A stretch of 64,000 nucleotides of DNA from Cenococcum geophilum (taxonomy: Eukaryota), in the NCBI GenBank assembly GCA_050273025.1, contig CP158635.1, forward strand, positions 20,646,001 to 20,710,000, written 5' to 3'. How positions within the stretch are numbered: the stretch's first letter is position 1; each line of letters opens with the position of its first letter. The notes under the pieces are model-generated. The model was not told the DNA's origin and ran no database searches. It saw only the letters and a list, made by a program, of their open reading frames with translations. Both the position numbers and the translations under genes were made by a program. Shown one piece after another: positions 991 through 63,966 of this stretch.

Positions 991-1797
991 GTTGCCTATA
1001 AGTTACCTATAAGTCACTAGTATAACTAGGTTACATTAAAGTGTGGCTTATATAGGATATTAATAAATTACGCTTTATCCTATATATATACCGTAGTTCT
1101 TACTATAAGTATTAGCTTATTCTTTAATCCCTTAAAACGTCCTTTATTCCGCTTTAGCGTAATTATAAAAGGCTAGTCTAACCGGAACGTATAATTATCT
1201 AATTAATAGTATAGAATAAGAGTTATAGTTAAGTAGAAGATAAGGTAAGGTAGAATAATCTTTATAAATAAAGGATAAATACTTTCTAACCTCTTTTATT
1301 TAGAGACTAATTGCTAGCTCTTCTTTAAAGGAGAACTTGTTACAAACGCTTTAAGTACAATGTTATAACTACTTGGAGAAGAGTTGGAGGAAGCTAGTTG
1401 GTTAATATAAGCACGGTCCAGGATAGATCCGGTAGAACTATGTGACGAGGAATAGTAACCAAGTCACGTGATGTAATCTGTGTGATCTGTATAATCTGTG
1501 TAATCTGTGTAACAGAGTAAACAGAGCACACGTACCTTACGTATAAGAAGGATTTCATAGGAGTACGGTTATATATTTAAGGACCCTTAGTCCCTACCTA
1601 GATAGTTCCTTCCTTATAGTAATTCTCAGAATACAATTAGAGTTAATCTATTGGGCAACCACTCCACCAGTTATTATTACGTTATTAACTTTATATATTA
1701 CCTACACACCTAGCCTAATAACAAACCCACCGTAGTACTTGCTACAAGGTTCCGTTATATAATTACTACCTAGTTATAATATTAAAAGTTAAACAAT

Positions 1798-4700
1798 ATG
1801 CCACTAAAAGCAGCCACTATAACGCTATTGACGGCGGCAACTACTTTAAGGTTAGGAGGTAACACCAGTATAGCAGATACTAACTCATAACAACCTATAA
1901 CAGTTGAATAATTATAAGAAATAGTTAACCAGTTAATAGAAAATAATACGGTACTTAAATAAAGGGTTAATAGAATAGGAGCAGCAAAGGTTAAGTTACT
2001 ATTAATTAAAAGATTCTTAGGAGAGAGATTAAAGCTTAAAGGATTCCTTACGTAAATGCATTTTAAGGTTGCGTAAGAGGGAGTAAAGCTGGTAACACCT
2101 ATAGATTAAATAGCGTATATAGGATTGTTCTTATTAGGAAGAGCACTTAAATAGTTTAAGCCTTACCTTATAGAGATATAAGCAAATGGAATAATAACGA
2201 CGAACTAAGAAGTACGGTTTATATTCTTAAGCTAGAATGGATTTATAGAGCGACTTATACAGATATTTAGAGACCTAGAGGTAATAACTATGGCGGAAAG
2301 AAAGCTTTAAGATATTACGTAATAAACCTTAGCTATTAAGTATATAACGTAGTTCTAAACGCTAGTAATATAAGTTAAGTAAAATAATAGGGCGCTTATG
2401 GCATAGTATAAATAGGGACTTAAGGCTAAAGTCTAGGACGCAATTATTCTAATAGAAGATGCGGATACCCTAAGGGAATTAATAGATTAAGTAATAAAGA
2501 TTAATAATAGGATCTACCAAAGGGAATAAACTAAGAGAGGTTAAAATAAAGTTTTATAGTTATATAAGGCGTAGAGTACGCATTAACCAAAGCTAAGTTA
2601 GAAACTATAGTATAGCGCAGAGCTAATAGACCTAAGTAGTACTAAAGAAGCCTATAAGAGATAGAGTAAGATACTATAGAAACTAAAAGGATAAGGATTA
2701 AGTAATTAAAGGTCTAAAGAGCAAAGGCCAAATTAGGGATTTTAGTAGCAGAAGACATTTAGGCGGACTCTATAATAAGAAAAATAGTTTAAAGAGGGAG
2801 CTTGTATAAATTGTGGAAAATAGGGTTATTTCGCTAGAGATTGCAAAGATAGTTAAAGTTACTATATAATAAAGGGAACCGGACTAGTAGACGGTATATA
2901 CGTACAGAGGGATAATAATGCACTATAAGGAATAAAGGATTATTTAATTAACCACTTTATATTTTACTATAATAACGCGTGCTAAATTTATAAAGACGCT
3001 AAGTATAACGCAAGCTATTAGCTATAGGAACCTAGTTTAAAGAAACTAAGAGCTACCTAAGACTATAAAGAGCAAGATAGGCTTTACGAATGCGATGAAG
3101 ATCTAATAGCAACTTTTAGTACAGTGTTAATAAGGCAGTATTTAGAAAGGGACTTTAGGAAAAATCCATTTAGCGATATTAAGAAAGAAGATCTTAAGAT
3201 ATTAGTATTAGAAGTAGAGACTGAGACCGCTATAGAGTAAGGTTTAGTAACGGGCATTATAATACCGTTGGATACGGCATCTATCGCTTTATAAGACGGC
3301 AGGAAGAGTATCCTATAAAGATTAAGTAAGTAGACGACTACTAGTGCTAATTCACTACTTAATAAAGGTAAAAGGCTAAAGGCTTAAGATTCTTAAGATG
3401 AGATAAGAGACGACTAAGATTCTTAAGATAAGATGAGGTATACCTAAGGACCTATAATAGACGAGAACCGATAAAGTAGGGTAATAGCTTAGTTTAAGGA
3501 CATATAAATAAGCTTGGGATAGAGTTTCCCACAGGTATTAAATTCTTAAGATAAGATAGATAAGATTTAAGACTCTTAAGATAAGATAAGAATACTACGG
3601 ACGCCTAGTTAGACTAAGGCGGGAGCTAAGCTTAAGTTAGAAGTAAGCTTAGGATTAAAAAATCTAAGGGACTAAGAATTTAGAGTACGAATAAGGACAC
3701 CTATAGATAAGAGGTAAGGAGCTTCTTTATAGATTAGAGAATCTGTAATCTAGGTAGTAGTTAGACTAAAAGATAGATATATAGACCTAGAAGACTTACT
3801 AGTTAAACACGGTGTTTAGCCTAAAGATTAAAAAGTTAATACTAAGATTAAGAAGTACGAAGACTTTAAGGATCTACGCGTAAGACGCGAAAGAAAAGAA
3901 ACTATAAAGAAATTTAGAGTAAGAATTACCTTGTGGCAAGAGTAGAAACTAGATTAGAGATCTAGTCTGCTAGGTTATATAAGGGATAGAGCGTTAGTAT
4001 AAAGAATTATTAATAGGCTAAGAATAGGTATACTAAGAGCTAAGTGGCTTACTAAACTGGAATAAGAAGAGGATCTAGGGATTCTAACTAGATTTAAGGA
4101 ATGATATATAAAGGGCTGTCACGATATAGTAATAAGAAGATACTTCCTTACGGATAGAGCGTATATACTTAAGCAGCTGTACTAAAAGTGGTATAGGCAG
4201 CGATATAATAATAAGTGGGAAGATTTCTATATATAGCTAGATAAAAAAGTTGTCTAAGACCACCTAATTATAGAAAAGGCTATAACTTATATTAAAGGAG
4301 CCTTAATTATAACATTAAAAGATTTAAAGGAGTAATTAGAGGACTAGAGAAGCGAGAAATAAATTTTAGTACCTGTAAATAAAGTTGCGACGCTTAGATT
4401 AATATGAGAAAGGTTTAAACTTAAGGATAAAGACGAGCTAAGAGTTAACCTAAGACACTAAGTATATTATATACTATCTTAGATAGCATATGTGGATAAT
4501 ATGTGTAATATATATAAAGCACCTAAGGATAAAAATTGGAAGTATTTAATAAGGATATATTAGATAACGGATAAGGTGGAATATTAAAATACTAAGAATA
4601 TATATAGTTGGCACCTAGTAGAAGTTTAAGAATAAGGGGACTTAATACTTTAACTAGGAAGATTCCTTACGGAAGAATGCCTAGATGGATAATAATGGTA

Positions 4701-7700
4701 GGAATATTTAGAGAACACCTGTTTATAGCACATTAAAGAAAAGAAGTAAACTAAGTATTGGCCTAAGTCGGACTAAGTATAAATAGGATCTAGTAGCTAA
4801 TAGTTAGGAAAAGTAGAGGCCTACGGGATTAGAGGGAACTAGTAGTAGAGCCTTAAACCCTTAAAGGAATTTAAGAAAGATACCTAAATTTATAAATTAA
4901 ATAGTAAGATTAATAGTTTGAAGTACTAATAGATAGTAGAGTAATGAGGAACTATATCTTACTAGTAGCAGTTAAAAGAATAGGACTACTATATAGAAGA
5001 AAGGAGCACCTATATTTATTAGTAACAATTTTAGGAGATTTAATAGCCTATAAAGACGGTATTATTAATCTTAAAATAGGACCTATTTAGTTAACTATTA
5101 AAGGAAAATAAATTCGGATGTCTTTTAATATCCTACTATTAGGGAAGGATGAGGCGATATTAGGGATACTTTGGTTATAGGAGTATAATCTAAAGATTAA
5201 TTAGGTTATAGGTTAGGTTAATATTAAAGATACTTAACGCTATAAAGTGCGATAATAAGCTAAGTTGGTATGGTACTAAGTAAAAGCAACCTATAAGGAA
5301 ATAGAAAAGGGACTAAGCTATATACTAAAGAGATACTATAAGTATAGTAAGAAACTATAGTTACTAAAAAGTAAAAAGCTGTTAAAGTATATAGTATAGG
5401 ACTATAAGATAGAATTAGAACTAGAAATAAGTTTAAAATTCTTTCTAATTTATAAGCTTACCAAAAAAGAAGGTAGAGTATTAAAAGAGTTTATCTAGGA
5501 GAACTTATAAAAGGGATATATTAGACTATTGCAATTATTAGCGGGTTATCTAGTATTATTCGTCTTAAAGAAGAATAGTAAGCTAAGGCTGTATATTAAC
5601 TATAGATAGTTAAACAGCATTACTAGGAAGGATAGGTATTCTTTACCCTTAATTAGCGAGATCTAAGACAGGATAGGTAATGTATAAATCTTTATAAAGA
5701 TAGATCTAAGATAGGCGTACTATTAGATTAGAATTAAGGAAGGCGATAAATAGAAGGCAGCCTTTAGGTTAAAGGAAGGACTATATAAACTATTAGTTAT
5801 ACAATTTGGACTTATAAACGCACTAGTAATATTTTAAAAGTGAATTAATAATATATTAGGAGAATACTTAGATGAATTTATTATAGTATACTTTAATAAT
5901 AATATTATCTACTTAATAACTAAGGAAGAATATGGGGAATATGTTAAATAGGTTTTAAAGAGACTATAAGAGGAATAGATGCTAGTAGTAATTAAGAAAT
6001 ATAAGTTCTTTACTAGGAAGATAGATTTTATTGGATTTATTATTAAACTAGGCTAACTTAGTATAGATCTAAAGAAGATTAAGGCTATAGTAAATTAGTA
6101 AGAACTAGAGAACATTATACAATTAAGGTTATTCCTAGGGTTTTACAATTACTATAAAAGGTTTATAGCGCAATAGTTAAAGGATATTAAGCTATTTATA
6201 TAGTTAATAAAGAAAGAAGAACTATAGGCATAGGGATAGGAATAATAAGAATTATTTAAGGAAGTTAAAAGGTTATTTACCTAGGAGCTAGTTCTTAAGA
6301 TCTATTAACTAGAACTAGAGACGGTTGTTAAAATAGATATATTAGACTTTATACTAGGGGTATACTTTATATAAAAGCATCCGGATAGATGGCACCTAGT
6401 GGCATACTATAGTTAGAAGATAATACTACTAGAGTTAAACTATAATATTTATAATAAGAAGTTATTAGATATAGTTATAGTACTAAAGGAATAGAGAGCA
6501 TTCTTATAAGGTATAGAAAAACTATTTATAGTTAAAACGGATTATAAGAACCTAACGGGATTTCTAATAATAAAGGAACTTAACTAAAGATAGGTTAGAT
6601 AGGTAGAGATACTTATAGAATACTATTTTAAGATTTAGTATACTAAGGGTATAGATAACACAAGAGCAGATGCTCTAAGTTAAAAAGCTAAACTGTAAAA
6701 TAATAAAAAGCTATTAGGGGCTTTGTTGCGAAAAGATACAGATAGATTAATTAGGTATAATTATCTAAAAATTACAGTAACTTAGGAAGAACTAGAGAAG
6801 GTTTATAAGTTACTAAAAAGCTTTTAGGTATAAAGAATTCTAGAAATATAGCTAGAAGATCTATAGACGGATATATACGAAAACCGAGAAGTAAAGTATA
6901 TCCTAAAAAGCATAGTAGAGTAATTTGTGGAAGATTTCTATAAAGGACTAACTTAAGGATATAACGGAGCTATAGGCTTAGTGTTAAGACTCTAGGAGGA
7001 GTATATTATTAACGGAATCTAGAAAATAGCTAAAAAGGTTACTAAGAAGTGTTTAGATTGCTAAAGAAATAAACTAATAAGGTATAAGCCATATAGAGGG
7101 CTATAACCTATTAAAATACCAGAGAGACTATAGGAGGTCATATTATAGGACTTTATTATAAAGTTGCCAAAATTAAGAGATCCTATTACTGGACAAGATT
7201 ATAATACGATCTTAGTAATAGTAAATAAGCTTATAAAGTGGGGATACTTTATAGCGTGTATAGAAGAGATATTAGTAGAAGATATTACTAGAATCTATAT
7301 TAAAGAAGTGTTTATAAGATATAGAGCATTAAGCAAAATCATATCGGATAGGGATTTAAGATTTATAGCAGTATTCTAAGAGGTATTCTTAGCGGAGTAA
7401 GGAGTTTAAGTAGTAACTTCTACCGTATATTATCCGCAGACAGACAGTTAAATAGAAAGATTAAATTAGACACTAAAACAGTATCTAAGATATTATATTA
7501 ATTACGCATAAAATAATTAGGTATTACTATTACTAATTATACAGTTTATATATAATGTAATACTATAAGAAGAAATAGGTACGTTACTATTTAAGGCGAA
7601 TTATAGATATAAGCTAAGAATATCGCTATTGCTACGTTAAGTAAAAAAGATAAGTAGTACGGCTAAGTAAAGGATAAAGATATTAATAAATCTTTATAAG

Positions 7701-8213
7701 AACCTTATAGAAACAGCTAAGGTAGTATAGCAAAGAATAAAGAAATACTATAATGCTAAGAGATCTAAGGGACTAGATCTTAAGGAGGGAGATAAAATGT
7801 GGCTACTATACAAAAATTTTAAGAGTTAATAACTAAGTAAAAAATTAGACTATGTTAGGCTAGGACCTTTTAAAATTAGTTAAAGGATTTTACCGGTTAC
7901 ATTTAAGATAAACCTACTAGCTAAAATAAAGATCTACCCTATATAGTATATCGCAATGCTAGAGCTAGTATATAGGAAAGTTAAGCCACTAGTTTACGAA
8001 GCAGACACGTATAAAGGATAAGAAGAAGATAAATAGCAAGTTTTAAAGATCGTTAATTATAAGGACGTTAACGATAAAATATAGTATAAAGTTAAGTAAA
8101 TAGGCTATAACGAGACTACCTAAAAACTACTAAAAATTTTAAAAAACGCTATAGGAAAGGTATAGGAGTATTGGAAGAAAATAGGTTAAGTAATATTAAA
8201 GAAGGATTACTAA
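1798..8213 (+). pseudogene. gag-pol of Gypsy A copy 1 (gag with CCHC knuckle, protease, RT, RNase H, integrase, chromodomain), many RIP stops
   Basis: ATG at 1798. CINCGK*GYFARDC at about 2803-2845. LIDS-type protease motif near 4925. RT YxDD remnant near 5887. Integrase (ORF 7164-7379, IISDRDLRF). Chromodomain-like YKVK*IGY...EYWKK at about 8030-8180. Confidence 0.9.
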
Positions 8214-8229
8214 AGAATAAGTTACCTAA

Positions 8230-8842
8230 GGGGGACCTAGGAAGAGCGATTGCTAAACTACTTAGAATTATTTCCTTCGCTAATTAAAGAAAATCCATTT
8301 TTTTATTACTAAGTTCCTACAGACCTTATTCTATAAGTTTCTACTTTTTAAAATAAACCTTCTTATAACCCTTTTTAAGATAAAGAAGCTGAGTATAAGT
8401 AAAGGCGCGGGCTTTAAAGGCTTAATAATCTTCTTCTCTTACCCACTTAGCGCGAGCTTAATCTTCACGCTAAAGGCAATAAATCTTACCTAGGGCACCT
8501 ATAAGTTTACTATTAAGCTTTATAGCGGCAGATTAAACATAAGACCCTATAATAAATTACTTAGGGAACTTAATAACTATTAAGAGTTATAGGATACGTA
8601 TACTTAGCGTTAAATATAAAGCGAACGTTATAAGATAAATAGATATTTACTTTAGTACACTTTAAATAAGAAGAGGGTTGCTAAGATAAAGGGCTCGCCA
8701 GCGTAATATAAACTAACCCCTCTTTTATATAATAAGAATATGGAGATAGCATTATTCCACCCAGAGATAATATTATAGTAACGGTATAAGACCAATAAGC
8801 TATAGAAAAAGAAGGCGGAGGCTTAAAAACCTTTAAAGGCAT
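8230..8842 (-). pseudogene. Antisense accessory gene of Gypsy A copy 1: Zn2Cys6-like cluster plus coiled coil, one inferred intron
   Basis: ATG at 8842. De-RIP reading PCSxCAKEGLVC-x13-CSECTKANIRSSC. Inferred 55-nt intron at 8547-8601. Exon 2 is E/Q/R/K/L-rich. The 3' end is approximate. Confidence 0.6.
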
Positions 8843-9209
8843 TATAAGTAACAATATTAACTAAATTAATTAGACGGATATTATACCTCTAGTAAACAAC
8901 TTAGAGATATTAGAAATCTTTAAGGACAAAGATAGAGAGGAGGGAGATAGTATTATGGACGCTTTAAGTATAATATTATAACTACTTAGAGAAAAGTTAG
9001 AGGAAGCTAGTTGGTTAATATAAGTATAGTCTAAGATAGATCTAGTAGAACTATATAATAAGAAATAGTAACCGAGTTATATAATATAATCTATATAATT
9101 TATATAATTTATATAATCTATATAATAGAGTAAATAGAGTACACGTACCTTATATATAAGAAGGATTTTATAGGAGTACGGTTATATATTTAAGGACCCT
9201 TAGTCTCTA

Positions 9210-10498
9210 CAGTGCCAAGACATTAGTCTGTGCACACGCGAACCAACACCACACGATCGCAATATTGTCACCAAATTCAATCATTTACCACATCACAATG
9301 CAACGCTCGTTTGGAACGGAAATTAGTGGAAATCGAAGGCCTGGGGCAGAGCTTTCAGATGCACAAAGAGCTGGAATCCTTAGTGCAGTAGAGGCAGGGG
9401 AGGAGAAGACTAAAATCGCGGCGAGGTATCGCGTCAGTCGTCGCGTTATTTACAATATAATCGATCAATGGAATAACCACCACACGCTTAAATCTCTACC
9501 AAGACCCGGACAGCCCGAAAAGCTTACTCGATGACAGAAGCGTCTACTTCTTCAAATTGTACGCAGGAACCCTTGAATCGACTATGCAGCTCTTAAGTGT
9601 CAGGCTGTAGGGGTTACCGTTAAGCATAGAACTTTACAACGTCTATTCAAAAAACACCATATTACGAAGTGGCTCGCCAAAAAAAGACCAAAGCTGACGC
9701 CAGCGGTAGCTCAATTAAGGTATCTTTGGGCTCGAAAATACAAGGGATTCCCTTAGAGACGTGTCAAGTTTTCTAATAAATGCTCATACGAACGAGGCTT
9801 AGGAAAGAAGCCCGTTTGGGTCTTCCGGACGTCTCTACAAAAGTGGAATCATGACTTTATTACAGAGGTGTCCAACGGAAAGGATCTTACACAGATAATC
9901 TACGCACGCTTTTTGGTACGATGGCCGTTCGGAGTTGATTGCTATGGAAAGAGACGTTTTAGCGCGGAAGGAAGGCTATAGCGCCCGAAGCTATATTTAG
10001 GCCTTAGAAGAAGGTCTTATGCCAGTCTATAAGCCTTTAGATATCTACTAAATGGATAACACTCCAATCCATATGTCGAATCTTGTAAAGAAGTGGTTGG
10101 AAACGCACGGTGTTTAGACGCTCGATTTCCCCCCATACTCGCCCGATCTTAACCCAATTAAGCACCTTTAGCTGGCACTAAAAAGGAAGATTCTTAAGCT
10201 TCATCCAGAGCTTGAACAGATGGGACAAAGTAAGGAGAATTTGGAGCGTTTAATTGAGGCGTGTAAGGAGGCGTGGTTGGCTATCGATCAAGGCCTTATG
10301 CGACGATTAATCGACAGTATGGACCGAAGGCTGGAGGCAGTAAAAAAAGCACGTGGCTGGCAGACAAAGTATTAACTATAATTAAACAATCTCATACTAA
10401 TTTGGCTGCATTTAATTGCTGTGGCGTTGTGCGATTGTTCAAAGTCGTGTCGATTTTGGTGAGAATTCGGGTGTGCACAGACTAATGTCTTGGCACTG
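9210..10498 (+). mobile_element. Tc1/mariner (DD34E, impala-like) DNA transposon inserted in the middle LTR of Gypsy A
   Basis: 28-bp perfect TIRs cagtgccaagacattagtctgtgcacac. TA duplication at 9208-9209 and 10499-10500. The empty site tcccTAcctag is visible in the other two LTRs. Confidence 0.95.
9298..10375 (+). pseudogene. Tc1-family transposase pseudogene
   Basis: N-terminal HTH region (MQRSFGTEISGNRR). MDNTPIH...PPYSPDLNPIK gives 34 residues between D and the (RIP-mutated) E. C-terminus RRLEAVKKARGWQTKY*. Several stops and a frameshift near 9900-9940. Confidence 0.9.
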
Positions 10499-10701
10499 TA
10501 CCTAGATAGTTCCTTTCTTATAGTAATTCTCAAAATATAATTAGAGTTAATCTGTTGGGTAACCACTCTACTAGTTATTATTACGTTATTAACTTTATAT
10601 ATTACCTATATACCTAGCCCAATAATAAACCTACCATAGTACTTACTACAAGGTTCCGTTATATAATTACTACCTAGTTATAGTATTAAAAGTTAAATAA
10701 T

Positions 10702-13700
10702 ATACCACTAAAAGCAGCCACTATAACGCCATTAATGGCGGCAACTACTTTAAGGTTAGGAGGTAATACTAGTATAGCAGATACTAACTTATAACAACCT
10801 ATAACGGTTAGACAACTATAAGAAATAGTTAACTAGTTAATAGAAAATAATACGGCACTTAAATAAAGGGTTAATAGGATAGGAGTAGTAAAGGTTAAGT
10901 TACTATTAATTAAAAAATTCTTAGGAGAGAGATTAAAGCTTAAAGGATTTCTTACATAAATGTATTTTAAGGTTATATAAGAGGGAGCAAAGCTAGTAAT
11001 ACCTATGAATTAAATAGCGTATGTAGAATTATTCTTATTAAAAAGAGCACTTAAATGGTTTAAGCCTTACCTTATAGAGATATAAGTAAATGGAATAATA
11101 ATAATAAACTAAGAAGTACGGTTTATATTCTTAAGCTAGAATGGATTTATAGAGCGACTTATATAGATATTTAGAGACCTAAAGGCAATAATTATGGTAA
11201 AAAGAAAGCTTTAAGATATTATGTAATAAACCTTAGCTATTAAGTATATAACGCAGTTCTAAACACTAGTAATATAAGTTAAGTAGAATAATAGGGCGCT
11301 TATAGTATAGTATAAATAGGGACTTAAGGCTAAAGTCTAAGACGTAATTATTCTAATGGAAGATGCGGATACCCTAAGGGAATTAATAGATTAAGTAATA
11401 AAGATTAATAATAGGATCTACTAAAGGAAATAGACTAAGAAAGGTTAGGATAGAGTTTTATAGTTATATAAGGCGTAAAGTACGCATTAACCAAAGCTAA
11501 GTTAGAAACTATAGTATAGCGTAGAGCTAATGGACCTAAGTAGTACTAAAGAAGCCTATAAAAGATGGAGTAAGACACTATAGAAACTAAGAGGATAAGA
11601 ATTAAGTAATTAAAGGTCTAGGGAGTAAAGGCCGAATTAGGGATCTTAGTAGTAGAAGATATTTAGGTAGACTCTATAATAAAAAAAATAGTTTAAAAAG
11701 GGAGCTTATATAAATTACGGAAAATAGGGTTATTTCGCTAGAGATTATAAAGATAGTTAGAGTTACTATATAATAAAGGGAACCGGACTAGTAGACGGTA
11801 TATATATATAGAGGGATAATAATACACTATAAGGAATAAAGGATTGTTTAATTAACTACTTTACGTTTTACTATAATAACGCGTGCCGAATTTATAAAGA
11901 CACTAAGTACGGCGTAAGCTATTAGCTATAGGAACCTAGTTTAGAGAAACTAAGAGCTACCTAAGACTATAAAGAGTAAGATAGGCTCTATAAATGTAAC
12001 GAAGATCTAATAGTAACTTTTAGTATAGTGTTAATAAGGCAGTATTTAGAAAGGGACTTTGGGAAAAATCTATTCAGCGATATTAAGAAAGAAGATCTTA
12101 AGATATTAGTATTAGAAGTAGAGACTGAGACCGCTATAGAGTAAGGTTTAGTAACGGGCATTATGACACCGTTGGATACGGCATCTATTGCTTTACGAGA
12201 TGGTAAGAAGAGTATCCTATAAAGATTAAGTAAGTAGACGACTGCTAGTGCTAATTCACTACTTAATAAAGGTAAAAGGCTAAAGGCTTAAGATTCTTAA
12301 GACGAGATAAGAGACGACTAAGATTCTTAAGATGAGATAAGGTATACCTAAGGACCTATAACGGACGAGAACCGATAGAGTAGGGTAATAGCTTAGTTTA
12401 AGGATATACAAATAAGCTCGGGATAGAGTTTCCTATAGGCATTAAATTCTTAAAATAAGATAGATAAGATTTAAGACTCTTAAGACGAGATAAGAATACT
12501 ATAGACGCCTAATTAAACTAAGGCGGGAGCTAAGCTTAAGTTAGAAGTAAGCTTAGGATTAAAAAATCTAAGGGACTAAGAATTTGGAGTACAAATAAGG
12601 ACACCTATAGATAAGAGGTAAGGAGCTTCTTTATAGATTAGAGAATCTGTAATTTAGGCAGTAGTTAGACTAGGAGATAGATATATAGACCTAGAAGACT
12701 TACTAGTTAAATACAGTATTTAGCCTAAAAATTAAAAAGTTAATATTAAGATTAAGAAGTACGAAGACTTTAAGGATCTACGCGTAAGACGTAAAAGAAA
12801 AGAAACCATAGAGGAATTTAGAGCGAGAATTACCTTGTAGTAAGAGTAGAAACTAAATTAGAGATTTAGTCTATTAGGTTATATAAGGGATAGAGCACTA
12901 GTACGAAGAATTACTAATAGGCTGAGAACAAGTATATTAAGAGCTAAGTGGCTTACTAAACTAAAATAAGAAGAGGATTTAGGGATTCTAACTAGATTTA
13001 AGGAATAATATATAAAGGGCTATTACAATATAGTAATAAGAAGATACTTCCTTATAGATAGAGCGTATATACTTAAGCAGCTATACTAAAAGTGGTATAG
13101 GCAGCGATATAACGATAAGTAGGAAGATTTCTATATATAGCGGGATAAAAAAGTTATCTAAGACCACCTAATTATAGAAAAGGCTATAACTTATATTAAA
13201 GGAGCCTTAATTATAACGTTAAAAGATCTAGAGGAGTAATTAGAGGACTAGAGAAGCGAGAGATAAATCTTAGTACCTACGAATAAAGTTGCGACGCTTA
13301 GATTAATATAAGAAAGGTTTAAACTTAAGAATAAAGACAAGCTAAGAGTTAACCCAAGACACTAAGTATATTATATACTATCTTAGATAGTATACGTAGA
13401 TAATGCGTATAATATGTATAAAGCACCTAAGGATAAAAATTGGAAGTATTTAATAAGGATATATTGGATAATGGACAAGGCGGAATATTAAAATACTAAG
13501 TATATATATAGTTAGTACCTAGTAGAAGTTTAAGAATAAGGGGACTTAATACTTTAACTAGGAAGATTCCTTACGGAAGAATACCTAAATAAACAATAAT
13601 AGTGGGAATGTCTAGAGAATACCTGTCTATGGCATATTAAAGAAAAGAAGTAAACTAAGTATTAGCCTAAGTTAGACTAAGTATAAATAGGATCTAGTAG

Positions 13701-16700
13701 CTAATAGTTAGGAAAAGTAGAGGCCTATAGAATTAGAGGGAACTAGTAGTAGAGCCTTAGATCCTTAAAGGAATTTAAGGAAAATACCTAAATTTATAAA
13801 TTAAATAGTAAGATTAACAGTTTAAAGCACTAATAGATAGTGGAGTAATAAGGAACTATATCTTACTAGCAGCAGTTAAAAGAATAGGACTATTATATAG
13901 AAGAAAGGAGCACCTATATTTATTAGTAATAATTTTAGGAGATCTAATAGCCTATAGAAATGGCATTATTAATCTTAAAATAGGACCTATTTAGTTAACT
14001 ATTAAAGGAAAATAAATTCGGATGTCTTTTAATATCCTACTATTAGGGAAGGACGAGGCGATATTAAGGATGCCTTAGTTATAGGAGTACAATCTAAAGA
14101 TCAATTGGGTTACAGGTTAGGTTAATATTAGAGATACTTAACGCCGTAAAGTGTAATAATAAGCTAAGTTGGTATAGTACTAAGTAGGAGTAACCTATAA
14201 GGAAATAGAAAAGGGACTAAGCTATATACTAAAGAGATACTATAAGTATAGTAAGAAACTATAGTCACCAGAAAGTAAAAAGCTGTTAGAGTATATAGTA
14301 TAGGACTATAAAATAAAATTAAAACTAGGAATAAGTCTAAGGTTCTTTTTAATCTATAAGCTTACTAAAGAAGAAGGTAGAGTATTAAAAGAGTTTATCT
14401 AGGAGAACTTATAAAAGGGATATATTAGACTATTGCAATTATTAGTAGGTTATCTAGTATTATTTGTTTTAAAGAAGAATGGCAAGCTAAGGCTATATAT
14501 TAACTATAAATAGTTAAATAGCATTACTAAAAAGGATAGGTATCCTTTACCCTTAATTAGTAAGATTTAAGATAGAATAGATAACGTATAAATCTTTATA
14601 AAGATAGATCTGAGATAAGCATACCATTAGATTAGAATTAAAAAAGGCAATAAATAAAAGGCAGCCTTTAGGTTAAAGGAAGGACTATATAAACTATTAG
14701 TTATACAATTTAGACTTATAAACGTACTAGTAATGTTCTAAAAGTGAATTAATAATATATTAGGAGAATACTTAGATAAATTTATTATGGTATACCTTGA
14801 TAATATTATTATCTACTTAATAACTAAGGAAGAATATAGGGAATATATTAAATAGGTTTTAAAGAGACTATAAGAGGAACAGATGCTAGTAGTAATTAAG
14901 AAATATAAGTTCTTTACTAGGAAGACAGATTTCGTTGGATTTATTATTAAACTAGGCTAACTTAGCATAAATCCAAAGAAGATTAAGGCTATAGTAAATT
15001 AGTAAGAACTAGAGAACATTACATAATTAAGGTTATTTTTAGGGTTTTACAATTACTATAGAAGGTTTATAGCATAATAGTTAAAGGATATTAAGTTATT
15101 TACGCGGTTAATAAAGAAAGAAAAACTATAGGTATAGGGATAAGAATAATAAGAATTATTTAAGGAAGTTAAAAGGTTGTTTACCTAGGAGCTAGTTCTT
15201 AAGATCTATTAACTAGGACTAGAGACGGTTATTAAGACAAATATATTAGACTTTATACTAGGGGTATACTTTATATAAAAGCATCTAGATGGATAGCACC
15301 TAGTGGTATACTATAGTCGGAAGATAATACTACTAGAGTTAAACTATAACATCTATAATAAGGAGTTATTAGGTATAGTTATAGCACTAAAGAAATAAAG
15401 AGCATTCTTATAAGGTACGGAAAAACTATTTATAGTTAAGATGGATTATAAGAACTTAACGGGATTCCTAATAATAAAGAAACTTAACTAAAGATAGGTT
15501 AAATGGGTAGAGATACTTATAGAATACTATTTTAAGATTTAGTATACTAAGGGTATAGACAACATAAGAGTAAATGCTCTAAGTTAAAAAGCTAAACTAT
15601 AAAATAATAAAAAGCCATTAGGGGCTTTGTTGCGAAAAGATATAGATAGATTAATTAGGTATAATTATCTAAAAATTATAGCAACTTAGAAAGAACTAGA
15701 GAAGGTTTATAAGTTATTAGAAAGCTTTTAGGTATAAAGAATTCTAAAAATATAGCTAGAAGATCTATAGACGGATATATATAAAAACTAAGAAGTAAAG
15801 TATATCCCAAAAAGCATAGCAGAGCAATTTATAAAAGATTTCTATAAAGGACTAATTTAAGGATATAACGGAGCTATAGGCTTAGTGTTAAGACTTTAGA
15901 AGGAGTATATTATTAACGGAATCTAAAGGATAGCTAGAAAGGTCACTAAGGAGTATTTAGATTACTAAAAAAATAAATTAATAAGGTATAAGCTATATAG
16001 AGGGCTATAACCTATTAAAATACTAGAGAGACTATAGGAGGTTATATTATGGGACTTTATTATAAAGTTACTAAAATTAAGAGATCCTATTACTGGATAA
16101 GATTATAATATAATCTTAATAATAGTAGATAAGCTTATAAAGTGGGGATACTTTATAGCATATATAGAAGAGATATTAGTAGAAGATGTTACTAGAATCT
16201 ATATTAAAGAAGTATTTATAAGATATAGAGCACTAAGTAAAATTATATTAGATAGGGATCTAAGATTTATAGCAGTATTTTAGGAGGTATTCTTAGCGGA
16301 GCAAGGAGTTTAAGTAGTAACTTCTACTATATATTATCCGCAAACAGACGGTTAAACGGAAAGATTAAATTAGATACTAGAACAGTATCTAAGATATTAT
16401 ATTAATTACGTATAGAATAATTAGGTATTATTATTACTAGTTATATAGTTTATATACAATATAACACTATAAGAAGGAATAGGTATGTTATTATTTAAGG
16501 CAAATTATAGATATAAGTTAAGAACATTATTATTGCCACATTAAGTAAAGAAAATAAGTAGTACGGCTAAGTAAAGGATGGAGACATTAATAAATCTTTA
16601 TAAGAACCTTATAGAAACAGCTAAGGTAGTATAGCAAAGAATAAAGAAATACTATAATGCTAAGAGATCTAAGGGACTAAATCTTAAGGAGGGAGATAAA

Positions 16701-17117
16701 GTGTAGCTACTATATAAAAATTTCAAGAGTTAACAACTAAGTAAAAAATTGGACTATATTAGGCTAGGACCTTTTAAAATTAGTTAAAGGATTTTACCGG
16801 TTACATTTAAGATAAACCTACTAGCTAAGATAAAGATCTACCCTATATAGTATATTACAATACTAGAGCTAGTATATAGGAAAGTTAAGCTATTAGTTTA
16901 TAAAGCAGACATATATAGAGGATAAGAAGAAAATAAATAGTAAGTTTTAAAGATTATTAGTTATAAAGACGTTAATAATAAAATATAGTACAAAGTTAAG
17001 TAAATAGGCTATAATGAGACTACCTAGGAACTACTAGAAAATTTAAAGAACGCTATAGGAAAGGTATAGAAGTATTAGAAGAAAACAGGTTAGGTAATAT
17101 TAAAGAAGGATTACTAA
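10702..17117 (+). pseudogene. gag-pol of Gypsy A copy 2
   Basis: Colinear with 1798-8213 at a constant offset of 8904 bp. ALIDSG near 13826, YLDN near 14793. Confidence 0.9.
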
Positions 17118-17133
17118 AGAATAAGTCACCTAA

Positions 17134-17746
17134 GGGGGACTTAGGAAGAGTAATTACCGAACTACTTAGAATTGTTTCCTTTGCTAATTAAAGAAAATCT
17201 GTTCTTTTATTACTAAGTTCCTATAGACCTTATTTTATAAGTTTCTACTCCTTAAAATAAACCTTTTTACGAACCTTTTTAAGACGAAGAAGCCGAGCAT
17301 AAGTAGAGGCGCGGGCTTTAAGGGCTTAACGATCCTCTTCTCTTACCTACTTAGCGCGAGCTTAATTTTCGCGTTAAAGGCAATAAATCTCGCCTAGAGT
17401 ACCCGCAAGTTTACTATTAAGCTTTATAGCGGCAGATTAAATATAAAACCCTATAACAAATTACTTAGGGAACTTAACAACTATTAAAAGTCATAAGATA
17501 TGTATACTTAGCATTAGATATAAAGCGAACGTCGCAAGATAAACGGATATTCGCTTTAGTACACTTTAAATAAGAAGAGGGTTGCTAAGATAAAGGGCTT
17601 GCTAGCGTAATATAAACTAACCCCTCTTTCGCATAATGAGAATACGGAGATAGTATTATTCTACCCAGAGATAATATCGCAGTAATAGTATAAGACCGAT
17701 AAGCTGTAGAAAAAAAAGGCGGAGGCTTAGAAACCTTTAAAGGTAT
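17134..17746 (-). pseudogene. Antisense Zn2Cys6-like accessory gene, Gypsy A copy 2
   Basis: Colinear with 8230-8842. Keeps TGC for the sixth Cys (SCDVR) and ARLLRLKKVRKKV in exon 2. Confidence 0.6.
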
Positions 17747-18699
17747 TATAAGTAATAATGTTAACCAAATTAATTAGACGGATATTATACCTCTAGTAAA
17801 TAACTTGGAGATATTAGGAATCTTTAAGGATAAAGATAAAGAGAAGGAAGATAGTGTTATAGACGCTTTAAGTACAATATTATAACTACTTAGAAAAGAG
17901 TTAGAGGAAGCTAGTTGGTTAATATAAGCACGGTCTAAGATAGATCTAGTAAAACTATATAATAAGGAATAGTAACCAAGTCATATAATATAATCTATGT
18001 AATCTATATAATTTATATAATCTATATAATAGAGTAGATAGAGCACACGTACCTTACGTATAAGAAGGATTTTATAGGAGTACGGTTATATATTTAAGGA
18101 CCCTTAGTCCCTACCTAGATAGTTCCTTCCTTGTAGTAATTCTCAGAATATAATTAGAGTTAATCTATTGGGCAACTACTCCACTAGTTGTTATTACGTT
18201 GTTGACTTTACATATTACCTATACACCTAGCCTAATAACAAACCCACCGTAGTACTTGCTATAAGGTTCCGTTACAGAACTAGCTCCCTATATAATCCTT
18301 TTAAGACGCTAGTAAAACCCTTTACCCCTTATCTGTCTAACTATATCTTTTAGGACGTAGATAAAATATAAATAGGATATAAATAGAACCTTTTACTATC
18401 TTATCCGATATATACCTTCTAGGGGATTCCGTTACAATAGGCCATATTTTAATAGCGGCGCTAGCTTTTCGCCTTTGCTTTAGCTATAAGGCTAGGGTAT
18501 TTTACTTACGGTACTTATCTAATAGTTATTAATAATTTTTAAGTTTTGTCTTGTATTTCTATTTATTATACTTATTTAGCTATTTTAACCATTTAATAAG
18601 GTACTATAGTTATCTAATATAATCCTAGTAGGTGATAATTACTTCTACTTCCCAGCTGCCTTTTTTAAGCTCTTTTGCTGCTAAGGGTTAAAACCTAAG

Positions 18700-19540
18700 G
18701 TCCAACCTATAAGGCTCTAGTAGGGAGATATAGAAGACTAGGTAGAGCCGTACTATAGTAAGTAAAAGCTCCAGCTTATATGCTTACCGCCTTACACGCT
18801 TTAGGATTTAAAATAGTCCTATAAACTTATAGTTAAGCTTCTTATAGGGACGTTTTGTGTGGATATTTTTAGAGGAGAGTAGGACTTAGTTACTAACGGC
18901 GAAGTGCTTAGCTAGATAGTGACGATTATAGTATTTTACCTAAAGCTTTTAGGCGTATATTATTGGCGCTACTACTACCTTATAAATACGCCTCTATAAG
19001 TTAGACATTTATTAACTTAAATCCCTCCCTACCTTACTAGCTAGCTATAGGCGAGCTTAATAGGGGAACGCTTTATTATAATATAAACCTTAGAGTTATA
19101 GGTAAAGGCTGTATTTTTAAGTAGGGAGGCCTAATTAGATTATTCCTAGTTTGTAAATATATATAGGTATATCTTAAGTTCCTAGTTTTAACGCTCTATC
19201 TAACTATCTATCTATAGGTAAAATATAGTGATACGTTTACGTTAAATGCGGAGATGGTAATATATAGTGCTTTAATACTCGCTTATAAATATACTACCCC
19301 TATTAAAGATAATATTATTTAAAGGCCCTATTTACGTAAAGACTCTAAATAAGAGTTCTGCGAGTTGTATAGCATTAATTACCTTACGCACTAGATAGTA
19401 GCGTACTAGCTTTATAAAACGGTCTGTAAGGCTAAGAATAGAGTTATACTCTACGCTATTAGGAGTTTTAGACTCTAAAAGATCTATAATAAAGTTAAGT
19501 AAATAATGCCGCTAGGCTTAGGTGGGGACTTAAAGAAGCT
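18700..19540 (-). pseudogene. Ty3/Gypsy integrase fragment
   Basis: Minus-strand reading NSILSLTDRFIK...GPLNNIIFNRGSIF...IER*N*ELK...AYKLELL...VFYISLLEPY. Boundaries approximate. Confidence 0.75.
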
Positions 19541-19619
19541 ATAGCTTATTATAAGGGTTATAGCGGCGCGATTTAAAGCGTTAGTAGGTATTATAGTTAT
19601 TTAGGTATTTACGGAGGTC

Positions 19620-28200: not shown

Positions 28201-31200
28201 CCTTTTCTTATAATCCTCTGCGTTACTGACGCATTGCTCCCACATTTGCCCTTAGGCTATTAGATGTAATTAAGATATTAATCAGTTAGTTAAAGAGACT
28301 TATCTCTTAAGATTTAATATATATGCTTTTAAATCTGGTGGTCCTGTGCTGTATATTTGGCGTAGCTCTACTACCTAGCAACTAGGGACATTTCGCGATA
28401 GCAATTGTAGCTATTATGCGATTGTTAAGAACGTTTATAACGTTGTTCTTTGATACTATAGTATTGTTTTAGGTATAATTTAACCCATATACGTCTTTAA
28501 TTTAATATCTTAATTGCCTTCCCCTAGCCGCGTAGTCAGTTTTTGTAAGGAAGTGATAGTTAAATAACTTATACGCGTGTTTCCTTCCTTCTAAATAACG
28601 CTATTATAACGGAGTTATATCGGCAAGGTTGCGGCTATTCACTAAAAGGGTATTAGAAGGTAAAGTATAAAGACACCTTGCTCATCGAGCTGCTCCTTTT
28701 CTTGAATACCTCACTTCTCGCCATCAACCGTCGTCCAATTTTAGACGTATCTTTAATATATTATTAAGATTTTCTTCTTTTTTATCAATAATTCAATATA
28801 CCTCTTTGTTCTCCTACTAACTGCTCTTCTAAGTAGATTCTACAGCGTATCCTAGCCTTGCCTTTGTATATAGAACCCTAACCTCCGCTAACTCGTAACT
28901 AGTGCTGGTCCTACCTAAATAATTTTGCCTATATATCTTTAAAAGACCAGAAATCTAATGATAGGATTCTAGAGGCTTATAACAAGACGCACTACATTAG
29001 ATCCAATACCTTTAGTCCTTATAATTAATGCATACGTACCAAAAGCGGCAGTTGTATTAAGGTAAGTTTTTCTATCCTTAATAGATTTCTATTACTAACT
29101 TTAAGCTTTAATAGCCTAGGCCTAAGTGGTGACGTTCCTTTAATGTCCTTGACTACTATATCGCCCGGGCTCTCTCTTATTCCAGCGTAAATGCTAAATA
29201 ACTTGGCCGAATTTAAGACTATGCTACGGCTATCTACACTACCTATAATTCCTAGTAAGCTAGCTAGTAACGCCTAATATGAGAGTAAGGTTAGTATACT
29301 GAGGATAGGGTAAGGGATAGGGGTGATGAGAAGAAGGTCGCTGTCTACTATAGGAAGGAGTTCGCGTATGTGCGTTAAGTTTTAAAAGAGCATAACATAA
29401 TACGGTATTAGGTAGGTTACCCTTTAGGTACCTAGTGGATAGGTAACTAACAGTTGCCGTAGCAAGGTCTTAGTAGTTCTAGACTATGCCAGCCAGCCAA
29501 CGTCTCTGTTCATTCTAGGCTTAAGCGTGTCTTTATTAACTATAAGCTTACGCTATAAGAGCTTTATTGGTATTGGTTTGGACCTAATATTAGTATTAAG
29601 CGTTTAAGAGTCTCTGCTTTATCTACACCTTATTGTCCTGCCCCTGTTTTTATGCCTACTTATATACCTACTAAGGGATCTGGATCCCATTCTTGTTAGC
29701 CATTACTTAGTAGCCCGATGGATATTAATCCTACTCCTAATGATAAGGCATAGTGGCTTTTTAGATTAGGCATTTATAGTTTAGACTTTTGGGATTCGTT
29801 CTTGTATATAGTAGCAATTAAGGACCTTAATTAGGTGCTTAGAAAGGCCTTATAAGGCTTTTAGAAAGGGCTTAGAAGCCCTAGGAACTATATTCCTAAT
29901 ATAGATTTATAAATAAGAATGCAATTCTAGTAAAATGCCCTATTAACTCTATGTTATATACGTGAAAAGGCTAAGGACCCGTCCTGCCTTGGGCCGTAGC
30001 CCTATCCCTATAGTTTCCGGAGCTTGTCCGTACTATATCCAATTTAACCTATTTACTCTTTAGGGCCTTTTGCGGCCTACTATAAGCTTTCTTCATAGGT
30101 TGCGATAACACCGTAGTATTAGAGCGCTTTCTGTGATTTGCAGATTGTGGACCTTAGTCCCAATATTCTTTTAGAATATCTTTATAATAATTAAGGTGAT
30201 CCTCTGGTTCCTATATAAAGTCCTTAGCGGGCCAACCTAGCCATTTAACTTCAAATTAAAGCTTGTTCTTGACAGATTTATAGCATAGTATAGCTTTAAC
30301 CTTATACCGCTCGCCCACTACCTTAGGGTGTTTAATTAGGCCTAGACGGAAGTTCTTTTCCGGCGGTGGTCTATACTATAGCTTTAGTAGGTTTATGTGA
30401 AACACTAGATATATATGGGCCATAGATAGGGGTAGCCGGAGACGGTAGGCTAGCTTACTAATTCGTTCCTTAATTTAGAAGGGACCTAGGTATCTTATAT
30501 TAAGCTTCTTTAATAGTTAATGGGTCTTAATATTTGTTAAATATAATAGAACCTTATCGCCTACTCTGAAATGCTTATCCTAGTGCTTGCGGTTGTACTA
30601 AAGTCTCTGCTACTCTTAGGTATCTTACAGGCTCTGCTTTACATACTTCCATTACTCCTCCTATTTTTAGAGGTATCCTTATACTCTCTAGTAGATGTCT
30701 TTGGACTTCCTAGTAGGGTCCTATAGCTAATTATGCGGCCTTAGCTAGTGATTATTAGGTATACTATTAAACCTGAATAGTTGGACGCTATAGGCAATCT
30801 GGATTGGTGCATACTTATATAATGCGTGTTGCTTTAAATTGTAAGCATACTCTGTGTACAGAAGTAGCTCGTACTAGTTGTCTTGCTAGTAGTTTAAATA
30901 CATTTATAGGTAAGACTCCAGTTCCTGGTTCTAGCGTTCCGTTTACTCATCCGTCTATAGGTGGAAAGCCGTACTATAACGGTGGTCTATCTTTAAATAG
31001 AAGTATAGATCCGACCAGTACTGACTTATAAAGACGCTGCCCCTATTAGTAATAATAGAGTATAGCTAATCTACTTTAAGAAAGCATTTCTCCTTAATTA
31101 GGTTGGTGAGCTTTTGTGTGTTGATTGTCTTGTTAATGGGAAGGTATTGGACGTACTTTGAAAACCTATTAATAAGTACGAGGACTAAATTGTATGTTCG

Positions 31201-41039: not shown

Positions 41040-41143
41040 TTGCGGATCTATAACTTACAGATCTATAGTTTGCGGATCTGTAGTTTACGGATATATAGCT
41101 TACAGATATATAGTTTGCGGATATATGGCTTGCGGATCTATGG
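41040..41143 (-). repeat. 15-bp tandem repeat within gag of E' (Q-T/A-I-D/Y-P units)
   Basis: ttgcggatctatagt-type units. The RIYGL ORF in the track is the antisense reading. Confidence 0.8.
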
Positions 41144-43540: not shown

Positions 43541-44632
43541 GAGCGCGCATAGATCAGGAGATACGCACTTACTTAGAAGACGTTTACGCTCCACCTTACA
43601 AGCCCCTATTTCAGTTAAAGAGAATTAAAGTACTCTAGATTTGGAAGACGTCTGACGCTCCATCTTACCTAAAATTACCTTAAATCTACCCTGGTTTTGG
43701 AAGACGTTTACGCTCCACCTTAATCAGAGATATTAACCACTATACCAGTAGTCAACGCAACCATATTAAGAACGCGATCACTAAGAACGCGACCACCTCG
43801 AACCCCAACCCTTACTACACCCTCTTTTAATACCTCCGACGTCTTTTAAACCCCTTACAGAGACCTCTTACCCTTCTGCGAACCGTTACGGACTCGTTAA
43901 TTACCTTTACGGACCATTATGGAGACCTCCTACCCCTCTACGGACCACTACGGACCTGTTAAGACCCCTTACGGACACCCTTACCCTCCTATAAACTACC
44001 ACGGACCCGCCAACCGCCTTTACGGACCACTACAAGACCTCTCCTACCCACTACGTACTATACTACACAATACAGTATAGCAGACCTAAGAAAGCAAGTT
44101 AATAAAGGTTAGGAAAAGTGGAGGTAGGGAGTTAACCTCACGTCTATACCTGACGTTAACAACTATATTAAATTCAAAGTTCTTAAATACGAATATTTTA
44201 AGCTTATAAACGTCAACCTATAGGAGCAATACTAGGAAGACTTCGCGGACTTTACGGAAGCTATCTTTAAAGCATGCAACCCTACTACCATCCGTAACCT
44301 ACGGACCCTCTTACGTAACTAAGGTATATAGGTTAAAAGGAATAAACGAGTTACTATTACATAGTCCTTATACAACATAATACACAAAAAGGACCAAACG
44401 GAATAAACTAAAGAGGAAATCCTAGACCAGTTCCAAGAAACTAAGGAACTCTTTACTTCTTCCAAACTTAATATAATCGCTAGCCTTATACCTAACCCAC
44501 TTAATTAAACTTATCCTACAAATCTAAGCAGTTTCGGAATTAATCTTACGGGCTAAAGCACACCTAGTACCCAAGTTACGGACCGTAATACCCCCGTAAA
44601 CCAAAATATGGACCAAAACCCTTCCGTTAATA

Positions 44633-63300: not shown

Positions 63301-63966
63301 TATAACGGAACTTTGTAGCAAGTACTACGATGGGTTTGTTATTGGGCTAGGTGTATAGGTATTATAAGTAAGTCAATAACGTAATAATAACTAGTAGAGT
63401 GGTTGCCTAATAAATTAACTCCAATTATATTCTAAGAATTACTATAAGGAAAGAACTATCTAATATAGGGACTATGGTCCTTTAAATACATAACCGTACT
63501 AACTGCTAGGAAACCCTCCTTATACGTAAGGTACGTGTGCTTTATCTACTCTATTATAGATTATATAAATTATATAGATTATATAGATTACATTATATAA
63601 CTCGGCTACTATTCCTTGTTATATAGTTCTATTGGTTCCATCCTAGACTATATTTATATTAACTAACTAGCTTCTTCTAACTTCTCTCTAAGTAGTCGTA
63701 ATATTGTACTTAAAGCGTCCGTAATACCATCTCCCTCCTCTTTATCTTCGTCCTTAAAGATTCTAAATATCTCTAAGTCGTTTATTAGAGGTGTAATATC
63801 CATCTAATTAATTTAGTTAATATTGTTACTTATTATACCTAAAGTAACTTCTCTTTCTTCTATAGCCTATCGTGCTTATACTATCGCCGTAGTGTTATTA
63901 CTAGGTAAAATAATACTATTTCCGTGTTCTTGTTATGCGAAAAAGGGGTTAGTCTATATTGCTGTC
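63301..63966 (-). mobile_element. 3' end of a diverged Gypsy A family copy: 3' LTR 63301-63726, PPT, and start of the antisense Zn-cluster gene (63835 onward, plus strand)
   Basis: Reverse complement of the 422-bp LTR with small indels. ccatctccctcctc is the PPT. Reading ...PCSCYAKKGLVYIAV. Confidence 0.85.

Follow-up and report, generated by a model that had tools for sequence, protein, structure and literature searches.

Mutated remnants of an apparent spliced accessory gene antisense to the pol tail of a Ty3/gypsy chromovirus in Cenococcum geophilum

Few accessory genes of long terminal repeat (LTR) retrotransposons are annotated and hardly any have been studied, and a Ty3/gypsy element of the fungus Cenococcum geophilum raises the question of whether one may lie hidden on the strand opposite to pol. 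The element occupies part of a 64,000-nucleotide stretch of contig CP158635.1 (assembly GCA_050273025.1, positions 20,646,001 to 20,710,000, forward strand), the whole of which is called the window here. An earlier note on this DNA had claimed that the minus strand of the element carries a spliced gene for a Zn(II)2Cys6-like protein with a coiled coil, and had proposed that the product is a regulator or an anti-silencing factor. We examined the window copies of this antisense gene, collected its relatives, and analyzed codon-level alignments, substitution patterns and structural models. These comparisons indicate that a Ty3/gypsy chromovirus family carries it as a genuine accessory gene, of which the window copies appear to be the remnant killed by repeat-induced point mutation (RIP). 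We consider it very probable that the gene is real and selected.

The antisense gene occurs in the window in copies designated A, B and C:

8602..8842, minus strand: copy A, exon 1 (80 codons plus one base), encoding the basic, Ser-rich N-terminus and the Cys6 module; from alignment
8547..8601, minus strand: copy A, antisense intron of 55 nucleotides (nt), donor ATACGT (G to A from GTACGT), acceptor TAG; from alignment
8149..8546, minus strand: copy A, exon 2, encoding the long helix, a variable acidic region and the conserved C-terminus; from alignment and tblastn
17506..17746, minus strand: copy B, exon 1, start codon ATA (G to A from ATG); from alignment
17451..17505, minus strand: copy B, antisense intron of 55 nt; from alignment
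17053..17450, minus strand: copy B, exon 2; from tblastn and alignment
63823..63960, plus strand: copy C, an inverted partial element with the first 46 codons of the antisense gene and TGT at Cys1; from self-BLAST

Copies A (8842 downwards) and B (17746 downwards) are colinear at an offset of 8904 and 88.8% identical over 901 nt; the similarity of copy C is gone beyond 63960. The six-position cysteine pattern was found by a RIP-tolerant search in all six frames at two sites only, copies A and B. Within 961 nt, 108 of the 110 differences between A and B are C/T or G/A transitions, and the RIP indices of the element are 1.63 for TpA/ApT and 0.36 for (CpA+TpG)/(ApC+GpT), as compared with 0.79 and 1.16 in a gene-bearing block of the window. 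The element is a RIP-mutated repeat, and both of these copies of the antisense gene are dead like the rest of it. Aligned to intact relatives, the gene comprises 212 codons, with 9 stops in copy A (one in exon 1, TAG at codon 54, and 8 in exon 2) and 10 in copy B.

Most of what had been read from the window bears out in detail. The minus-strand ATG at 8842 is present in copy A and is ATA in copy B; it sits 109 nt inside the LTR edge at 8951. The 55-nt intron, (A<-G)TACGT...TAG, lies at the predicted bases 8547-8601. In copies A/B/C, the cysteine codons read TAT/TAT/TGT at Cys1, TAT/TAT/TAT at Cys2 and TAT/TAT/TAT at Cys3; in copies A/B they read TAT/TAT at Cys4, TGT/TGT at Cys5 and TAT/TGC at Cys6, just as had been given (TGT or TGC in at least one copy at Cys1, Cys5 and Cys6, and TAT at the others). 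The intervening 'x' codon between Cys1 and Cys2 reads TAT/CAT/TGT, which fits an ancestral CGT (Arg). The gene end, earlier put at 8230, had to be moved: by alignment to intact relatives, exon 2 reaches 8149, 81 nt further, and closes behind the conserved C-terminal motif ..LLNLFSSNTPIPFL* with a conserved TAG at 8151-8149, inside the chromodomain-coding region.

We built a profile from the translations of the three window copies, with stops written as X, and compared it with 1.84 billion protein representatives. This yielded 151 proteins at E<=1e-3, 43 of them at E<=1e-10; most are short open reading frames (ORFs) from RIP-mutated DNA that carry the same motif. One candidate, P0002, a 1390-residue tandem-repeat protein with 20 short matches, was discarded as an artefact of low complexity. 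Scanning of metagenome contigs gave 361 stretches encoding a relative, and the best 80 of the 361 were fetched and examined. Fourteen of these 80 loci were too short for a call on pol context. Of the other 66, which have 700 nt or more of downstream sequence, 65 have pol, up to the chromodomain, on the strand opposite to the ORF and running into it.

Three of the loci, L008, L004 and L009, are full-length, un-mutated elements of 7.5 kb each with open gag and pol and uninterrupted antisense exons, and un-mutated members of the family thus have intact copies of the gene at the same place. In L008 (RIP indices 0.71 and 1.12), numbered with the antisense-gene strand as plus, the ATG is at 258, exon 1 spans 258-498, the intron 499-553 and exon 2 554-906, encoding 197 amino acids and ending in TAG at 906. 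The 55-nt intron reads GTGCGC...TTGAT...TAG. The LTR edge lies near position 150, and positions 1-150 recur about 7.4 kb away in many loci. In addition, the protein record P0151 is a 152-residue un-mutated ORF with all six cysteines and the joined junction ..SDAE-W-SRVQSAAAKLD...

Codons were aligned in 40 rows, 39 of which span the intron and stop. All six cysteine positions hold TGT/TGC or TAT/TAC only in 40 of 40 rows, with no CAY and no CGY, and the tyrosine codons are therefore TpG-to-TpA products of cysteine codons. At the 'x' between Cys1 and Cys2 the residue is Arg, with CGT or CGC as the codon in 20 of the 40 rows. Among 222 proteins searched with a variable-gap motif, 122 matched, and 121 of these have the spacing 6/13/8, so the full module is C-x2-C-x6-C-x13-C-x2-C-x8-C with invariant spacing. 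The ancestral residues were thus cysteine rather than Tyr or His, as had been supposed. The spacing quoted for GAL4-type clusters, with a middle gap of 5-12, does not accommodate the module, as its Cys3-Cys4 gap of 13 is one above that range.

The same alignment carries the intron. It is 55 nt long in 38 of 39 rows and 64 nt in the other, and it follows the first base of codon 81, a split TGG codon conserved in 38/39 rows. Of the 40 rows, 18 start with ATG and 20 with ATA; of the 39, 38 stop at TAG and 1 at TAA. Un-mutated copies have the donors GTGCGC, GTACGC, GTACGT or GTATGT, the acceptor TAG, and a branch-site-like TTGAT, CTGAT or CTGAC placed 13-17 nt upstream of that acceptor. In other subfamilies the same junction is interrupted by an intron of 61, 127, 130 or 133 nt, and all six length classes are 3n+1. 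A RIP-tolerant intron pattern matched 68 of 82 sequences. While 82 ORFs continue reading into the intron, six distinct ORFs (P0151, P0169, P0171, P0173, P0178 and P0181, with 61-79% identity to P0151) have the joined form ..AEW|S... The in-frame join that had been proposed for the window, through T|GG (Trp) into a frame with many A, E, R, L and K residues, is this same junction. By its sequence, the interruption is a GT..AG spliceosomal intron with a yTRAy-like branch site and joined forms, conserved across the 39 rows at the bases that had been predicted. An antisense intron is not removable from the sense genomic RNA, and the six joined lineages are therefore most simply taken as spliced messages in RNA-derived assemblies.

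Three sequences deserve mention beside this. Loci L003 and L019 gave a first impression in tblastn of being intron-less; alignment showed the intron kept in both. In P0169, within residues 1-45, some 20 residues before the Cys module come from a different genomic frame, and about 70 nt, including the usual ATG, are apparently missing. A deletion could account for this 5' difference, as could an additional intron at the 5' end, in which case the conserved Met immediately ahead of Cys1 might serve as the start of translation.

Selection was assessed by transversion parsimony, because RIP makes transitions only, in the 37 rows with one long BLAST match to positions 1-1100 of L008; short or more distant loci and four partial rows were left out of the count. 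Exon 2 has 138, 48 and 46 transversions at antisense codon positions 3, 1 and 2 (chi-square P 3e-16), and this peak at the antisense third position is the second position of the sense frame. The controls, the chromodomain and further pol, have their peak at the third position of the sense frame, and in the intron there is no periodicity (8, 15 and 14 transversions; P 0.31). The 107-nt stretch that separates the antisense ATG from the LTR edge shows periodicity in the sense phase, with 27 events vs 7 and 5 (P 1e-5), and contains a conserved antisense stop. The periodicity peak moves by exactly one base across the intron, as splicing predicts. By the NG86 method on un-mutated pairs, the ratio of nonsynonymous to synonymous rates (dN/dS) in the antisense frame is 0.20-0.36 for exon 2 and 0.06-0.25 for exon 1, and in the sense frame 0.73-1.26 and 0.18-0.33, respectively; ratios in overlapping frames are not independent, so that the sense values near 1 are no proof of neutrality, and the position pattern is the cleaner evidence of selection. 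The antisense frame is under purifying selection. Three outcomes had been set beforehand as speaking against the gene, namely non-Cys ancestors, no GT-AG intron and no purifying selection, and none of them was observed.

The antisense gene shares its DNA with pol. The L008 pol is 1420 residues long, with the chromodomain at residues 1091-1139 followed by a 281-residue tail over the entire antisense gene; the tail spans 29-1021 on the minus strand of L008 and extends about 120 nt into the LTR. The layout is the same in L004 and L009, with tails of 280-300 residues, and in window copy A pol homology continues to 9065, with a tail at about 8181-9065 (plus strand) that reaches about 115 nt into the LTR. 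The placement 'between chromodomain and 3' LTR' given in the earlier note is thus right as to position, but the DNA there is pol reading frame and not a spacer. In 3/3 intact elements no stop interrupts the sense frame anywhere along it, and the tail ends in a conserved acidic stretch, ..DITPLI.DLE...IFEDE... When exon 2 was resampled synonymously, about 3 stops were expected and the probability of a stop-free sense frame was 0.014-0.064 per element, so the openness of the sense frame is no side-effect of the antisense codons. Likewise, intron lengths are always 3n+1, and the length changes have therefore preserved the sense frame. We infer that translation of the pol tail continues to its conserved acidic end and that over exon 2 the only constraint on the tail is to remain open, the sequence there being set by the antisense protein.

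What, then, would the gene have encoded? The predicted protein has about 197-212 residues. A basic N-terminus rich in Ser leads into the Cys6 module, and there follow a helix some 75 residues long, an acidic variable part and a conserved C-terminal ..FSMLPD..SSDTPVPFP. The long helix-forming stretch contains ..ARLLRLEKVREKVRSKEWKLVEQGLQEL.. and, in an AlphaFold2 model from 48 sequences, forms a single helix at residues 77-151 with a predicted local distance difference test (pLDDT) score of 95-99, in keeping with the long helix that had been expected in the second exon. A homodimer model scored 0.50 (the best of 3 controls, 0.02), with antiparallel helices centred on residue 115, runs agreeing in at least 71% of contacts and a partner pLDDT of at least 78. 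In calibration, the mark was reached by 21/30 solved one-chain pairs and 0/23 solved single chains (17/29 and 0/30 for eukaryotes); the present model, built without an alignment and with zinc included, lies outside that calibration, and long helices pair easily in models. With these limits, the modelling supports a helix dimer. In the ESM Atlas, the closest cluster (score 0.90, some 204 residues, 77 members, Ascomycota, no common Pfam) bears the automatic name 'Zn(2)-C6 fungal-type domain-containing protein', which serves as a lead and not as a test.

The succession of a basic N-terminus, Cys6 module, dimerising helix, acidic linker and short conserved hydrophobic-acidic end is the layout of a small fungal transcription factor. 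As a whole, the best explanation of the locus appears to be the RIP-killed remnant of a chromovirus accessory gene for a putative nuclear regulator, and we regard this reading as probable on balance. Transcription of an antisense message would begin at a promoter on the 3' LTR edge or close to it; the message would then be spliced, and its product would be a putative dimeric, zinc-binding nuclear factor acting on the element's own expression or chromatin, by a logic like that of the retroviral antisense factors. For the role of element-encoded regulator taken by itself, we would claim only that it is a fair possibility, somewhat short of probable. A more complete proposal is that a large ascomycete chromovirus family encodes a small dimeric Cys6 factor overprinted antisense on a translated pol tail, with about 650 bp coding on both strands, the antisense frame ruling exon 2, the sense frame held open and the intron held to 3n+1; with all these parts together we consider it rather unlikely.

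Besides the mutual dependence of the dN/dS ratios and the limits of the dimer model, several points weigh against the best explanation. Membership in the GAL4-type Zn(II)2Cys6 family, as the earlier note had it, could not be upheld: the best match to Pfam Zn_clus (PF00172) reaches 17.0 bits vs a cut-off of 21 (E 0.0063) with partial coverage of the profile, and DUF3716 (PF12511) fits better yet is also sub-threshold, with 20.1 bits vs a cut-off of 22 (E 6e-4) in L008 exon 1, where residues 23-74 align to profile positions 3-59 of 59, and with 18.6 bits in L004 and 12.2 in L009. Neither model, then, reaches its cut-off. At E<=0.1, 5 of 48 family members match Zn_clus and 2 match DUF3716, and the RIP-mutated minus-strand frames of the window gave no Pfam match at E<=0.1. 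GAL4-type clusters are far more basic between Cys2 and Cys3 than the present module, which has ..AKEGLV.. there. A PDB sequence search with the family profile gave no match for the Cys module and otherwise coiled-coil noise only (best ELL2, E 0.004), and AlphaFold2 assigned the module a pLDDT of 48-61 in the full model and a mean of 47.9 alone. Word-index protein searches returned unnamed jgi/ena metagenome ORFs only, with no annotated fungal protein and no precomputed Pfam domain. The 80 loci carry 8 contig-name prefixes, three of them dominant, so the family may stem from few fungal genomes. The six joined ORFs may instead come from intron-less DNA copies. One intron-less sequence, L001 (the contig of P0073), is RIP-mutated genomic DNA without the intron; its junction, at about 1225-1260, is 3 nt off, reading ..E-C-T-F-H-V-R.. 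where others have ..E-W-S-R-V-Q.., and its sense pol frame is broken. This loss could have come about by imprecise deletion, or by the use of other splice sites followed by cDNA recombination.

The main rival to a regulator is a cofactor of the retrotransposition machinery, an adaptor or chaperone on Gag, integrase or the pol tail that would serve in particle assembly, nuclear import or integration targeting. The sub-threshold Zn_clus score and the paucity of basic residues in the Cys module would suit such a protein, as would the conserved ..FSMLPD..SSDTPVPFP terminus, which resembles a short peptide-docking motif, and the physical interlocking of the gene with the pol tail. Its best Pfam lead, DUF3716, is a domain of unknown function that is also encoded, according to excerpts of PMC8232023, by accessory genes in a Zymoseptoria class II transposon. 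Nothing indicates binding to any element protein, however, and the layout fits a small transcription factor equally well; we therefore judge a cofactor to be unlikely.

Improbable, in our estimate, is a counter-defence factor, an idea already present in the earlier note, which would blunt RNA interference/quelling, heterochromatin, or RIP and its methylation. The gene is kept in element copies only, in all 65 informative loci, and a silencing suppressor would pay if overlapping sense and antisense transcripts formed double-stranded RNA. However, the protein has no similarity to any known suppressor, and most copies, including both in the window, are heavily RIP-mutated (TpA/ApT 1.63), so the gene gives no protection from RIP in this host.

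The remaining two explanations are contradicted by the selection data. That the antisense RNA itself is functional, with double-stranded RNA or transcriptional interference as its means of damping the element and the protein secondary, would accord with what the available text of the review PMC7264820 says of antisense transcription as a regulator in the case of such ORFs, but it is most improbable given the amino-acid purifying selection (dN/dS 0.06-0.36), the invariant Cys spacing and the conserved stop, none of which an RNA needs. Nor can we give real credence to the absence of any antisense gene, with the pattern a by-product of selection on the sense pol tail and of RIP-biased composition: the sense frame open in 3/3 intact elements and kept so against expectation, the 3n+1 introns and the exon 1 frames, which share third positions so that periodicity there cannot separate them, would agree with it, but the exon 2 peak at the sense second position (138 vs 48 and 46) is inexplicable by sense coding, and the one-base shift across the intron, the conserved start, stop, donor, acceptor and TGG split codon, and the six ORFs joined at the predicted bases all speak for a gene.

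The kind of gene is already known, the closest known case being brtn of Boty-like elements, whose original description is said to be that of Zhao et al. (2011, Virology 417:248). According to excerpts of four papers (PMC7264820, PMC8365987, PMC4227169, PMC5987419), brtn is an extra antisense gene between pol and the 3' LTR in elements of Botrytis and Sclerotinia, and a Monilinia transcript is reported to match BRTN as well as a truncated Pol, in agreement with a physical overlap or adjacency of the two. Compared by description only, and within the limits of those excerpts, the likeness is one of an ascomycete gypsy element with a chromodomain pol and an antisense extra gene between pol and the 3' LTR. 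The name brtn is absent from the 64 + 19 + 3 word-index protein matches. In the open literature searched, brtn is the only accessory gene of a fungal LTR retrotransposon named, and no description of the present protein layout or of an overlap with the pol tail was found in open-access papers and preprints.

Among protein families, PF00172 shares with the predicted protein the Cys6 rhythm C-x2-C-x6-C...C-x2-C-x6-8-C, followed by a dimerising helix and an acidic C-terminus; the differences are the sub-threshold, partial score, the Cys3-Cys4 gap of 13 and the few basic residues between Cys2 and Cys3. The coiled coil of Gal4 is parallel, whereas the dimer modelled here is antiparallel. HTLV-1 HBZ and HIV-1 ASP are minus-strand proteins transcribed from the 3' LTR side, and HBZ, made from a spliced message, is a dimerising helix factor that regulates viral transcription. 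The likeness to these is one of logic only, with no sequence relation, and HBZ differs in being a bZIP protein without a Cys module, encoded outside pol. As far as its available text goes, the review PMC7264820 draws this retroviral parallel in general terms. For DUF3716, excerpts of PMC8232023 describe two DUF3716 accessory genes, REP9-1 and REP9-2, that a class II transposon carries in Zymoseptoria tritici; both cases have a Cys-rich fungal module, some 60 residues long, riding as a passenger on a transposon, but the REP9 genes belong to a DNA transposon and are not antisense to a polymerase.

In plants, the excerpted part of PMC7264820 describes an aORF-3R class, with maize Grande1, rice RIRE2, Silene Retand and Phaseolus PvRetro13 as examples, that resembles the present gene in position and orientation, in conservation like that of other element proteins and in having an unknown function. 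The fungal gene likewise lies between the pol core and the 3' LTR (in the window and in L008), runs antisense to gag-pol and is conserved like coding sequence. The plant elements differ in being mostly non-chromoviruses with long non-coding internal regions, whereas the fungal antisense gene is overprinted on the pol frame, and the plant ORFs showed no sequence relation to it.

New here are the sequence-level purifying selection, the exact intron, the exon-joined forms in six lineages, the defined protein layout and the two-strand coding with the pol tail. The intact natural templates L008, L004 and L009, together with the joined protein record P0151, allow direct tests of function. These data also serve as a warning for annotation, as the stretch from pol to the 3' LTR of fungal gypsy elements can hide a gene on the opposite strand. 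If the putative factor binds the LTR or the pol tail, the family would contain a self-contained retrotransposon regulatory circuit, a fungal counterpart of the retroviral antisense regulators. The family could, if the reading is true, also be a source of DUF3716-type Cys modules in host and transposon genes.

The element itself lies in an AT-rich block (GC 0.27-0.36) that extends to about 58 kb. Positions 1338-18276 are a tandem Ty3/gypsy array of the form LTR-internal-LTR-internal-LTR, with three LTRs of 422 bp of which the middle one is common to both copies; by self-BLAST, 1595-9210 and 10499-18114 are 91.75% identical over 7616 nt. Its parts are as follows:

1333..1337, no strand: target-site duplication GAACT, left copy, with the right copy at 18277-18281; read from the sequence
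1338..1759, plus strand: 5' LTR, 422 bp, TG..CA type, RIP-mutated; self-BLAST of 1338-1780 vs 17855-18296, edges read from the sequence
1855..4839, plus strand: gag of copy A, RIP-degraded; tblastn with L008 gag, 48.9% identity
4758..9065, plus strand: pol of copy A, RIP-degraded, with protease, reverse transcriptase, RNase H, integrase, chromodomain and long tail; Pfam and tblastn
8034..8180, plus strand: chromodomain-coding part of pol, approximate; L008 Chromo residues 1091-1139 correspond to nt 875-1021, with L008 906 anchored at window 8149
8928..8950, plus strand: purine-rich polypurine tract directly before the LTR; read from the sequence
8951..9210, plus strand: shared middle LTR, first part; self-BLAST and sequence reading
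10499..10663, plus strand: shared middle LTR, second part, beyond an inserted DNA transposon; self-BLAST and sequence reading
17855..18276, plus strand: 3' LTR of the tandem pair; self-BLAST and sequence reading

The extent of the copy A pol was set by tblastn with L008 pol residues 1-1419, and Pfam identified RVT_1 (2.7e-17), RT_RNaseH (4.1e-14), Integrase_H2C2 and SH3_Tf2-1 on its plus strand. The polypurine tract at 8928-8950 falls between the antisense ATG and the LTR edge. One 5-bp GAACT duplication surrounds the whole array, which indicates a single insertion, then unequal recombination, and only afterwards RIP. The middle LTR is interrupted at 9211-10498 by the relic of a Tc1/mariner-type DNA transposon, in which Pfam recognizes HTH_Tnp_Tc3_2 (9e-12) and DDE_3 (4.5e-11) in two frames.

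Relics of more distant gypsy families and an inverted pair of 5.4-kb repeats that are 82.8% identical lie elsewhere in the window, at 18589-19580, 30163-33498 (minus strand), 53198-55935 (plus strand), 36636-41941 and 43795-49209, and the RIP-tolerant six-frame search found no six-Cys pattern in them. The gene-bearing block at 58-62 kb has a normal GC content of 0.50-0.53 and contains an adenylate-forming reductase gene at 57634-61128 (minus strand), which is split by apparent introns and encodes AMP-binding, PP-binding and NAD_binding_4 (4e-67) domains.

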